NCBI GenBank assembly: GCA_965645245.1
Contig: OZ287074.1
Span: 1,054,001-1,118,000, forward strand
Direction of reading: 5' to 3'
Length of the DNA stretch: 64,000 nucleotides
DNA from: Massalongia carnosa
Taxonomy: Eukaryota
Both the position numbers and the translations under genes were made by a program. Positions 12,186-55,742 of this stretch are shown here, piece after piece (within the stretch, counting starts at the first letter, position 1; each line of letters starts with the position of its first letter). The notes under the pieces are model-generated. The model was not told where the DNA came from. It saw only the letters and a program-made list of their open reading frames with translations, and ran no database searches.

Positions 12186-12259
12186 AGCTCTCAGACCGAT
12201 TCGAACGATCGACATTGCGATCTGCAATCGCATGCTCTAAACCGCTGAGCTATGAGAGC
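12186..12259 (-). tRNA. tRNA-Cys(GCA), intronless
   Basis: Acceptor GCTCTCA/TGAGAGC, D stem GCTC/GAGC, anticodon stem TGCGA/TCGCA with loop TTGCAGA, T arm GATCG-TTCGAAT-CGGTC, U73 discriminator, then a T run (Pol III terminator). Confidence 0.97.
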
Positions 12260-52497: not shown

Positions 52498-53640
52498 TTA
52501 CTCCTCCATCTCCTCCCCCTCCGCCTCTCCTCCGCCCGGCACACGCCCCTGATTGAGCTCCTTTTCCAACCTCGCAATCTCCTGTAGGCTTTTCGCATTG
52601 CGGATCAGCGCCTCAACGCGCTTCTTCTCCTTGTCGGTGAGCTTGATGCGAAACGCCTTGTCGGCTTGGGGGGCGACTGCGCCGTTGAGAGCAGAGGAGA
52701 AGGCTAAGGGTATGTCGAAGGTGCGAGATTTTATGCCAATGATCTGATATTGGTAAGTGGTTTGAACATCCAGGGGGGGGATAGAAGGGGAATGGAGGGG
52801 GAAAGGAGGATACTTTTGAGGCGAGGGCGGAGGGGTCTTTGGCTGTGCCGAAGAGGTCGCTGGCTGATTTTCGTTCGGCCTCTTTGACTTTTTGGTAGTC
52901 GAGGAAGCGGACGGTGGGGCAGCGCCATATAATCCAATAGCGATAATGCTACAGAACAGACAGTCAACCCCCTTTCTTCGTAGTCTTTTTCTTCACTACA
53001 AACAAGCTTCTGGCGTTTCGCTCACTTACCTCCTTTCTCGTAACTGCGTTGTCCAGCAAACTTAAGTGCGTCAATTTGGAGCAGTGCCTCAGAGTATCCA
53101 GATCCGCCAGCTCCGCAAAATTATTCGATGTCAGGATCAATGTTTTCAGGTTCGGAATCGAGTTCGGCAGCGTTGGCTGTATGCTGTTGATTCGATTGCG
53201 CGCCATGAGGAGGGTATGCAGTCTAGGGGAAAGCGGGAAATTAGAGAGAGCGCTAATATCGTTGTCTGTGAAATCGATGGCATCTTGGTCCTAATCACAA
53301 AAACCATTACTTCCTTTATCAGCAAACTGAGATGTACCATTGACAGGCATTGCACAAAGCAGCTTTGTGCCGGATAGACAGTGGAAGGAAACCTTTGCAA
53401 CGCCCAGGTTCTCAATGGCGGGTATCTTGTGTCCTGCAGTTTCGCCAATTCTGATATCAATGGAGCTCGCCTCAAAGTGTAGTATATCTGTTCTTTTCAG
53501 CACTCACCCCGGAGATCAAGTTCGCGTTCTTTGAGGGGGTTTAGGTAGGAGAGAGAGGTTTGGATGAGCTCAGCCGTTAATCTCTGGTGGCATATTAGAG
53601 CTTTCTGGCGCCTTTTTATATGTAGGATCTTCCTTACCAT
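52498..53640 (-). CDS. LEA1: U2 snRNP protein A' (6 exons; exon 1 is the ATG only)
   Basis: Spliced MRLTAELI..NPLKERELDLRGHKIPAIENLG..DAIDFTDNDI..HYRYWIIWRCPTVRFLDYQKVK. Confidence 0.96.
53472..53500 (-). promoter_or_regulatory. Intronic element antisense to U2 snRNA in U2A' intron 2 (53507-53434)
   Basis: Pre-mRNA CUGAAAAGAACAGAUA-UA-CUACACUU-U-GA versus the reverse complement of conserved fungal U2 UCAAGUGUAGUAUCUGUUCUUUUCAG; 26 pairs, two small bulges. Confidence 0.8.
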
Positions 53641-55742
53641 GGTTGCGTTATGGCACTTTTCACGGGTTTTAATCGAAAGCGACTGAAAACTAGACAATGA
53701 TACACGACTTCAACTGATTGGTATGTCATGTAGCATAGATGTTATGTTAGGGCGATTTCTTCAACACCAACGGGCTCGATCAGTGGTGGATAATGAGAGG
53801 CGATGGATAAACATACACCCAAGATAACTACACCACTCTCAGGCACGTGTCAGGCTAGCGCTATTAAGTCGAACAGCTCGTGCCCTTATCCTTAGCTTCT
53901 GTCTATCAGATTCAACAACTATCCCACCTTCAAGATATATTCTAAAGATTGATTCTAAAGTGCCTCTCCCCCGTTTCTTTCTCAAAGATTGACAGATAAC
54001 TTGAAGCCTTTGATGTCAGCTTAATCCTTTTACTAGAGTTTTCTATATTCTCCTTACAACATTCTCTGTTCATGGCTATAGTATCCTCATTCTTGTGTTG
54101 CATTACTGTGAGACGGCTTGAAGCTAGATAGATATGAGGTGTTTTGTTTAAATGGAAAAATAAGTGCATATCATCTCGACATTTGAGATCCTAAGGAGAT
54201 AAAATATGTCTGTTCGCTGTATCGTTTTTTTGCGCTTGGTTTTCCTTTAACAAAAACCCAGCTTGCTAGTAGTATATATTCGAGGACTGAGGCCCCACTA
54301 GGGTTGATTCCAGTGAATGATATTCCATTGCATCGAAGATGACCCTCAATACGGCAGAGAAGGGCGTACAGCTTCTCGGAATTGGAGCCATTTTCTGTGT
54401 AGTTTTGATAAGATATTCTCGTTTCTTACTTTTAAACCTGATTCAAACGTATCGAACGCATCAAGCCGCAACCCATACCAACTCTCAAAGAGGTTGTTGG
54501 CAGTTAAGAACGCTCTCTTCGTGGGGGATATGCCATACGATTGCCACACCGCTGAACCACTTCCTATCCTTTATCCTGAACTCTCCTATGTCTCCCAACG
54601 GGTCTTGGGGGGAAATTCCAGGTACGCTGACAAGAAAGATCAATCCATACCCTATCCGTTTCAAGTCTCTTTCTTGCAGAGCTGCAAGCTTGGCTCAAAT
54701 AATTTTCCTTTTTCAGGCAGACATACATAAAAAAAAAGGGGGGGAAGGGGGTGTATGAGAGAGGGGCTGGGACCGAAAGAGAGGTGGTTTGGGGTGTTTT
54801 GAATAGGAAGGAAAGGTAAGGTAGGGTAGATAGGCAGGTAGGTAGCAAATATGATGCAAGATATCGAGCAAAGGTCAAGACTACGTGCGGCCAGTTACCT
54901 ACCTACTACCTTAACCTCTCCCGTTACCTAATCCCATCCCGTCACGTTCCTCCAGCGCCATTTATATTCATAATGCCAAAATAAACCTCTGTGTCAGACT
55001 GAGGGACGGGGGTTGGGGGTCAAGTTATTTATAGTGAAAATTCAGAGATTTCGAGTTTCAGTATCAGTGTCTTATCGAGAGATTCCAATATTTTCTATTA
55101 AATTGCTTTCGATAGGGAGATGAGATTGATTGAGTGGTCATAGGTAGGTAAGCGTCTTCGGCTTAAGGGAATTCCCGCTTAGGCGCTAACCTGCTGGCTA
55201 AAGGGAGGGTTGGAAAGGTCGTAGAATACATAGTCATAAGGGAGCTGACTAGTTAGCTAGCTAGCCATCAAGGTATCCATTGTTAAGGTGCAAGGCTCTG
55301 TAAGCAAGACCCCAGAAGCAAGCAACCTTCTATCCCTCCATCTGCTGGAAAACTCAAAGCATCGGCATGCAGATGCATACTAGATCAGTGAGCTGCTCTC
55401 CAACCCTTACAAATTCTATCCGTGTTAATGTATCCATCCATCCGCCATCATCATTCAGAGTTAAAGAACAAAAGAGCCCAGATGCTCATTCTTCCAGGTG
55501 AGTAAGCACATACATACAAACTAGATCTCGCCTCCATCTTCCAAGCACATAGCATAACTCTTTCAAGCTATTTACTTGAATTTCAGGTAGACAAACAGAT
55601 AAAGAGCATAATCGGACAAGAAAATTGATGATTCTGATGTAGAAGCCACGCACGAGGGAGGCACGAATGGGAGCGAGCTGTGGAAATGCAGCGAAGCGCC
55701 CGTCCGAAGCAAGTTCTGAAACCCAGCTGTTCGAAGTAGCCC

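Follow-up and report, generated by a model that had tools for sequence, protein, structure and literature searches.

Intron 2 of the gene encoding U2A' (LEA1), a U2 small nuclear ribonucleoprotein (snRNP) protein, contains an extended antisense copy of U2 small nuclear RNA (snRNA), and on sequence evidence we are highly confident that selection has kept this element able to pair with U2. The gene is encoded on the minus strand of a 64,000-nucleotide (nt) stretch of the Massalongia carnosa genome (GenBank assembly GCA_965645245.1, contig OZ287074.1, positions 1,054,001 to 1,118,000 of the forward strand), hereafter the window. A first-pass annotation of the window, made from its letters, had read a 74-nt intron in a U2A' gene, had found in it 26 potential pairs with U2, and had interpreted the element as a U2-sensing autoregulatory switch. 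Direct reading returned the same 74-nt intron with the sequence as quoted, and the identity of the gene was borne out by exon 4, whose translation is a leucine-rich repeat (LRR) segment with 87% identity to the “U2 snRNP complex subunit” of Pseudocyphellaria, Lobaria, and Sticta (Lobariaceae) and with a match to Pfam PF14580; this similarity fits a lichen-forming fungus of the Ascomycota near that family.

The 26 claimed pairs, over intron nt 8 to 36, could be recovered in full as 16 contiguous pairs, a 2-nt UA bulge, 8 pairs, a 1-nt U bulge, and 2 further pairs. Alignment to antisense U2 over nt 8 to 33 gave 24 Watson-Crick pairs and a 2-nt gap, and the last U bulge and GA were read from the sequence. 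In U2, the element covers the 5' strand of stem IIa together with the branch-recognition sequence, GUAGUA. Facing the latter is UACUAC, which lies 24 to 29 nt from the donor and, as the first-pass annotation had stated, leaves no adenosine to bulge. The 2-nt insertion belongs to the window element; the other distinct introns described below have no insertion at this place.

Conservation of the element and selection for pairing

A protein-guided scan of metagenome contigs yielded 80 U2A' loci. Fifty-three are of an ascomycete type, reading RELDLRGHK, with an intron at the intron 2 site (37 distinct introns plus that of L065, which is cut at the contig end); eight read RQLDLRGYK and have an intron at the same site and phase; 12 have no intron at the site (7 of the ascomycete type and 5 of the RQLDLR type); and in 7 the site was not covered or the motif was not found. 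The 37 distinct introns, the cut L065 intron, and the window intron make up the alignment of 39 introns used throughout. The element is present in 53/53 ascomycete-type loci with an intron at the site, and it is strong in 37 of the 39 introns, being degenerate only in L022 and L023. The one-off insertion against which the first-pass annotation had proposed an orthologue comparison is thus not what was found. Judged by their best named protein matches, the carriers include Lecanoro-, Eurotio-, Leotio-, and Sordariomycete-like loci together with several equidistant ones, these labels being approximate; loci with best matches in genera such as Aspergillus, Penicillium, and Talaromyces are among them. 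As a member of the RQLDLRGYK type has 93% identity to Hebeloma, we treat this type as Agaricomycete. The position and phase of intron 2 are common to the two types, and the element is absent from all eight Agaricomycete loci that have the intron.

Across the 39 introns, the element has the consensus CUGAAAAGARCAGAUACUACACUUUGA, after which come GRGCGAGCU, two bases that vary, and RUUGAUAUC. The match to U2 spans 24 to 28 nt in most lineages, and both cytidines of UACUAC (C26 and C29) are invariant. Such conservation sets intron 2 apart from intron 3 of the same genes: at the 25 loci with both introns, identity reaches 80% or more in 42 of the 75 well-filled columns of intron 2 versus 3 of 63 in intron 3, where likeness is lost except at the ends.

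The match is also specific to intron 2. In an ungapped antisense-U2 scan of 716,654 positions, covering both strands of the window and the 80 loci, there were 36 matches of at least 17/23, all of them in intron 2, and the background maximum was 16. Similar matches in unrelated introns, which the first-pass annotation had named as grounds for doubt, were therefore not seen at 17/23 outside intron 2 in these positions, and the neighboring intron 3 is likewise without one. Duplex energies, computed against the universal 27-nt part of U2, ranged from -16.8 to -33.8 kcal/mol (median, -29.3) for the 39 distinct ascomycete introns, with -24.7 kcal/mol for the window intron. The introns of the eight Agaricomycete loci gave -7.4 to -12.4 kcal/mol, intron 3 of the same genes had a median of -9.5 kcal/mol, and 3,000 random 75-nt windows, drawn from a background purged of intron 2, had a median of -11.3 and a minimum of -24.0 kcal/mol.

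The substitutions indicate what is being conserved. They were counted by parsimony, with the exon 4 peptide supplying the tree, after neutrally scored alignment of every intron to the U2 target; counts on raw MAFFT columns were blurred by indel misalignment, and those from the pairwise alignments to the U2 target were used instead. The 18 core columns showed 36 parsimony changes, of which 31 keep pairing with U2 (29 exchanges between A and G opposite a U2 uridine and 2 changes from C to U opposite a U2 guanosine) and 5 break a pair. The neutral expectation for pair-preserving changes is 0.36 to 0.48 if half to two thirds of changes are transitions, and the binomial P value for 31/36 is then 8e-10 to 2e-6; it is 7e-4 even at an expectation of 0.6. 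A-to-G changes occurred at eight of the nine A columns and G-to-A changes at no G column, and the two G columns, which face U2 cytidines, were unchanged in all of their cells (0/78). In the adjoining conserved downstream block, G to A is the commonest change (25 events), and therefore the asymmetry does not reflect a general mutational bias of intron 2. Together with the conservation, this pattern lends good support to the pairing half of the first-pass interpretation, namely, that U2 pairing is the selected property.

Intramolecular structure was considered as a cause of the conservation and was rejected: RNAalifold predicted 0 pairs on the 39 introns, and the window intron folded no better than its shuffles (z = +0.95). 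A hairpin thus does not explain the conservation, and the element should be single stranded. Between the antisense-U2 block and the putative branch lies a conserved linker, GGCGAGCU plus two variable bases, with substitutions of all kinds. No pairing partner for GGCGAGCU was found by RNAalifold on the 39 introns, and when the linker and branch block were run against U2 in RNAduplex, only long gapped pseudo-duplexes resulted, which are uninformative.

Several loci depart from the common arrangement. In L022 (positions 2231 to 2337) and L023 (373 to 479), the degenerate element reaches only -16.8 and -18.7 kcal/mol, the consensus branch CACUGAC stands where others have UACUACACUUGA, and the downstream RUUGAY is gone; the decoy here looks like one that has turned into a branch-like site. 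In a divergent clade (L011, 419 to 505; L047, 2580 to 2660; and L048, 2580 to 2660), the element begins inside the donor (GUAUGUGAAGAACAGAUACUACACUUGA), so that the target sequences of U1 and U2 overlap, and L047 and L048 have a 22/23 ungapped match to the universal U2 stretch. Among the ascomycete-type loci without intron 2, L010 (3,093 nt) has a 475-amino-acid (aa) open reading frame (ORF) on the opposite strand beside the gene, which is why we regard it as genomic and intronless at this site, and L013 (1,195 nt) has an intron near residue 127 and none at the intron 2 site.

The U2 reference came from three outside sources: yeast U2, a Schizosaccharomyces pombe anti-U2 oligonucleotide, and the Rfam consensus together with contaminant eukaryotic U2 loci. 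As printed in PMC4712673, nt 31 to 78 of yeast U2 open with AGUGUAGUA through UUUUCAGUG and contain GUGUAGUA through UUUUCAG. The S. pombe oligonucleotide cU2(35-55) of PMC1865046, complementary to U2 nt 35 to 55, hybridizes to the same stretch as the element. In the Rfam U2 consensus, GAUCAAGUGUAGUAUCUGUUCU is highly conserved and is followed by the 5' strand of stem IIa. When the universal 21-mer (copied from L047) was searched against a prokaryote genome collection, 86 stretches were found, and 19 of the 20 tested were U2 according to Rfam; the fungal 22-mer had 0 matches in that collection. All 25 sequence variants retrieved (25/25) have AUCAG/CUCAG-type or other nonfungal letters after UUCUU, and the fungal UUUUCAG occurs in none of them. 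For the last seven pairs (CUGAAAA), the basis is therefore yeast U2 together with the conservation seen among the introns themselves. A scan of viral contigs gave two identical chance matches in AT-rich sequence, with no Rfam family. The U2 loci from the prokaryote collection (L081 to L160) are themselves curious, in that many bins labeled as bacteria, e.g., Hormoscilla, Anaerolineae, Poribacteria, and Metamycoplasmataceae, hold tandem arrays of eukaryotic U2 genes, some of these bins also having U1, U5, U6, 5S, or tRNA genes; such arrays are host or eukaryote contamination.

Splice signals, intron retention, and gene model

The splice signals of intron 2 are weak compared with those of its neighbor. 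CTRAY is found in the last 45 nt of 0/39 introns 2 versus 16/25 introns 3, and the donor is GUGCGU in 29/39 introns 2 versus 2/25 introns 3. In place of a consensus branch, a RUUGAY-type motif occurs in 37/39 introns, mostly 21 to 28 nt from the 3' splice site, with an invariant A; it can pair with GUAGUA only via wobble pairs, and in 11/39 introns the first position of the AUUG-like motif is G, not A. The single weak downstream branch candidate of the first-pass annotation, AUUGAU, is of this kind. As a consensus branch is one transition away and yet absent, it looks as if selection keeps these signals weak.

The element itself does not resemble a canonical branch site. Branch sites in short fungal introns lie roughly 10 to 40 nt upstream of the 3' splice site, and in the window intron 45 nt separate the end of UACUAC from the 3' end; no spare A is available in 37/39 introns, and CTRAY occurs within the element only in L022 and L023. 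Because the duplex is perfect across GUAGUA, with no bulged A, the element should be unable to serve as a branch site.

Retention of intron 2 would be costly to the reading frame, since it introduces an in-intron stop in 38/39 introns and a frameshift in the remaining one. In the window, the retained frame stops at codon 4, at the in-frame UGA that the first-pass annotation had pointed out. Two metagenome contigs, L001 (1,003 nt) and L006 (1,196 nt), hold a complete U2A' coding sequence broken only by intron 2: with the intron removed in silico they become single ORFs of 249 and 265 aa, respectively, and with it kept the frame stops at codons 33 and 42. In their closest genomic relatives the gene has one to three introns more, and their accession series includes an intronless Agaricales contig (L025), whereas genomic loci of the L025 type have introns. 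Given the missing introns and the accession series, L001 and L006 are most simply read as assembled transcripts from which all introns but intron 2 have been spliced.

The features of the gene are collected in Table 1. Intron 1, directly after the ATG, is 54 nt long (GTAAGG...CCACCAG, branch CTCTAAT), is in frame, and has no stops, so that a transcript retaining it would gain 18 residues (MVRKILHIKRRQKALICHQ-RLTAEL); in the metagenome relatives, which are without intron 1, MRLTAEL is uninterrupted (81 nt for residues 1 to 27). An Rfam scan of the window found one tRNA gene and no U2 gene, and Rfam gave no match at E values up to 10 for positions 53300 to 53700, the intron 2 region.

Table 1. 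Coordinates in the window of the U2A' gene, the parts of its intron 2, and the tRNA gene
Feature	Position	Strand	Remarks
U2A' (LEA1) gene, start to stop codon, six exons	52498..53640	minus	ORF list and sequence reading; exon order as in alignment A1
Start codon	53640-53638	minus	
Intron 1	53637-53584	minus	
Exon 2	53583-53508	minus	
Intron 2	53434..53507	minus	74 nt, GUGAGU...CUGCAG, phase 1 inside the Gly codon of RELDLRG/HKIP
Intron 2 5' splice site GUGAGU	53502..53507	minus	
Antisense-U2 element, intron nt 8-36: CUGAAAAGAACAGAUA-UA-CUACACUU-U-GA	53472..53500	minus	
In-frame UGA read upon intron 2 retention	53497..53499	minus	Four codons past Arg26; ORF ...DLRGEC ends there
UACUAC facing U2 GUAGUA, intron nt 24-29	53479..53484	minus	Without a spare A to bulge
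Conserved linker GGCGAGCUCC	53462..53471	minus	Conserved alignment columns
Putative weak branch site AUUGAUAUC	53453..53461	minus	Branch A at 53457, which is intron nt 51 and lies 23 nt from the intron's 3' end
Intron 2 3' splice site CAG	53434..53436	minus	
Intron 3	53392-53291	minus	
Intron 4	53029-52949	minus	
Intron 5	52813-52744	minus	
tRNA gene	12186-12259	minus	Rfam RF00005, 61.7 bits, 74 nt

A possible feedback circuit and its alternatives

What the pairing does is a separate matter from its being selected, and we put the chances at about even that the element is a decoy through which retention of intron 2 exerts negative feedback on the U2 snRNP. The element lies 7 to 30 nt past the 5' splice site and about 15 nt ahead of the weak branch RUUGAY; this is the part of an intron, upstream of a branch, that U2 snRNP proteins normally contact. 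In the circuit that we hypothesize, free U2 snRNA or snRNP that is competent to pair would dock on the decoy in a duplex that invades the 5' strand of stem IIa, and the docked U2 would block productive assembly on the adjacent weak signals, so that intron 2 stays in. The retained intron would bring a stop after 27 U2A' codons and yield a dead transcript, removed by nonsense-mediated decay (NMD) or held in the nucleus. Plentiful pairing-competent U2 would thereby lower U2A' synthesis. Hints toward this circuit are the stop or frameshift upon retention in 39/39 introns, the conserved nonconsensus splice signals, and the two transcript-like contigs that keep intron 2. The links of the chain that are inferred are the physical binding of U2 to the element, the repressive and not activating sign of the effect, the decay of the retained transcript, and the feedback as such.

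A more specific version, which we offer tentatively and consider less probable than not, is that the element acts as a naturally occurring antisense probe detecting U2 with an unfolded 5' region, pairing only with core or recycled U2 in which SF3b-type proteins have not yet locked stem IIa and the branch-recognition loop. U2A' synthesis might then be set by the assembly state of U2 and not just by its amount, through a circuit that might date from the common ancestor of most filamentous ascomycetes and that might be the first snRNA-sensing switch described for the U2 snRNP of the major spliceosome.

Several considerations weigh against selected pairing and its extension to negative feedback. 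The parsimony tree, built from 87 residues, has poor resolution in its deep branches, and the stem IIa part of the target (UUUUCAG) was taken from Saccharomyces cerevisiae U2, not from a Pezizomycotina U2. Both stem IIa and the GUAGUA region are folded and bound by proteins in the mature U2 snRNP. A tight U2 anchor beside a weak branch might equally aid splicing. The transcript status of L001 and L006 is inferred, and they could be genes that have lost their other introns; the four runs with the window locus are genomic contigs identical to the window, without joints, and no RNA run with the locus was found. Further, the element has decayed in L022 and L023, and seven ascomycete-type loci have no intron at the site, L010 being clearly genomic; such a circuit has therefore been lost in places and would be dispensable in some fungi.

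The pairing could also work with the opposite sign, which is the chief alternative though one that we consider unlikely. The element would then be a positive anchor that captures U2 snRNP and raises its local concentration, allowing the weak branch 15 nt downstream to be used when U2 is scarce, with U2A' being spliced preferentially and the effect again being homeostatic. The same complementarity, conservation, and pairing-preserving substitutions fit such an anchor; in addition, the gene models of relatives read RELDLRGHKIP across the junction in 26/26 proteins of alignment A1 (the intron being removed in the models), and some of the seven ascomycete-type contigs without an intron at the site may be fully spliced transcripts. 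However, the GUAGUA duplex would have to melt before the same U2 became available to the branch, and about 15 nt would have to make room for another U2 snRNP. A CURAY branch, expected if efficient splicing were the aim, is one transition away and yet occurs in 0/39 introns, and the two transcript-like contigs keep exactly intron 2. The element could be thought of as the real branch site, engaged in an unusually long U2 helix with the lariat formed inside UACUACAC: it faces GUAGUA exactly, short fungal introns can accommodate a branch 24 to 50 nt from the 5' splice site, and L022 and L023 read CACUGAC, a consensus branch, at the same place. With 37/39 introns lacking an adenosine to bulge, a distance of about 38 to 50 nt from the 3' splice site, and a separate RUUGAY with an invariant A at the usual 21 to 28 nt in most introns, we find this very improbable.

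Other explanations do without U2 pairing. A protein or another RNA might bind the element, either as a purine-rich silencer or enhancer or as a mimic of U2 stem-loop IV for U2A'/U2B'', in the manner of the U1A polyadenylation-inhibition element (PIE) loop, the antisense-U2 likeness being incidental. The downstream AUUGAUAUC bears a loose likeness to the AUUGCA-type loop that the Rfam U2 consensus shows at stem-loop IV, and the linker is conserved with no partner found. Nevertheless, one would not expect of a protein site that it tolerates A to G at eight of nine A columns and G to A at none, and G to A is frequent in the adjacent block; the folding analyses predict no hairpin with a loop to offer, and Rfam has no match there; the first AUUG-like position is G in 11/39 introns; and the U2 match runs over 24 to 28 nt in most lineages. 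We regard such a site as improbable. A neutral relic, i.e., an inserted antisense U2 complementary DNA (cDNA) or snRNA pseudogene fragment that has not yet decayed, has in its favor the likeness itself and nothing more. It is refuted by the conservation of the element in lineages with best matches in the Lecanoro-, Eurotio-, Leotio-, and Sordariomycetes as well as in lineages further removed, during which intron 3 of the same genes lost its likeness except at the ends, and by the nonneutral substitutions, leaving it a negligible chance.

Relation to known snRNP circuits

The nearest relative of the proposed decoy is the U11 snRNP-binding splicing enhancer (USSE) in the genes for U11-48K and U11/U12-65K, a conserved element that, according to PMC5473595, is bound by the U11 snRNP and leads to unproductive mRNA, giving the minor spliceosome a negative feedback. 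The logic is the same, in that a conserved cis element sits in the pre-mRNA of a protein specific to the cognate snRNP. The USSE acts by activating an alternative 3' splice site or the choice of a 3' untranslated region (UTR), whereas the intron 2 element would be expected to lead to plain retention. The USSE imitates U12-type 5' splice sites and is thus a copy of a substrate site; the U2A' element, in contrast, is a long antisense copy of the snRNA (24 to 28 nt, with no bulged A and invading stem IIa) in a short fungal intron of the major spliceosome. Binding and feedback have been shown for the USSE, whereas the U2A' element is known from its sequence.

The circuits of U1 proteins follow a similar principle. 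The U1A polyadenylation-inhibition element is an instance of self-regulated pre-mRNA processing. For U1C and U1-70K, PMC3798272 describes snRNP protein levels that are tied to snRNP assembly via alternative processing of the proteins' own pre-mRNAs. These circuits use protein binding or U1 snRNP-dependent splice-site choice, unlike the extended antisense match to an snRNA in U2A'. The canonical branch helix, in which UACUAAC or CURAY pairs with GUAGUA, engages the same six U2 nucleotides as the UACUAC of the element; the element differs from it in having no bulged A, in being four times longer, in lying near the 5' and far from the 3' splice site, and in having a separate weak branch downstream.

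That this part of U2 can be reached in cells is shown by synthetic antisense reagents. A 25-mer U2 morpholino has been used for functional knock-down of the U2 snRNP in human cells, as stated in PMC4028248. It covers the same U2 stretch and departs from the fungal consensus at the position that distinguishes animal from yeast U2, and its effect implies that this stretch is reachable by a complementary strand in cells and that its occupancy disables U2. Synthetic anti-U2 oligonucleotides are man-made and act in trans and in excess, whereas the U2A' element is one site in one pre-mRNA and would be a cis sensor rather than a depleter of U2. In the full-text literature, in which subscription journals are thinly covered so that a prior description is possible, we found anti-U2 probes and oligonucleotides, no U2-complementary element in a U2A'/LEA1 intron, and no cis-acting U2 sensor.

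To our knowledge, the question of how the amounts of snRNA and snRNP proteins are matched in the major spliceosome is largely open. The element described here is short, defined by its sequence, and conserved in a large group of fungi that includes genetically tractable models, and its presumed partner, U2, is known base by base, so that compensatory mutations can test the idea directly. For genome annotation, the element would flag an intron as regulated where gene callers may take it for constitutive. If the proposed feedback is true, the principle of the USSE, by which an snRNP senses itself via its own RNA, would extend from the minor to the major spliceosome, and a “natural morpholino” could regulate splicing, offering a handle on the conformations of U2 that are free in vivo.

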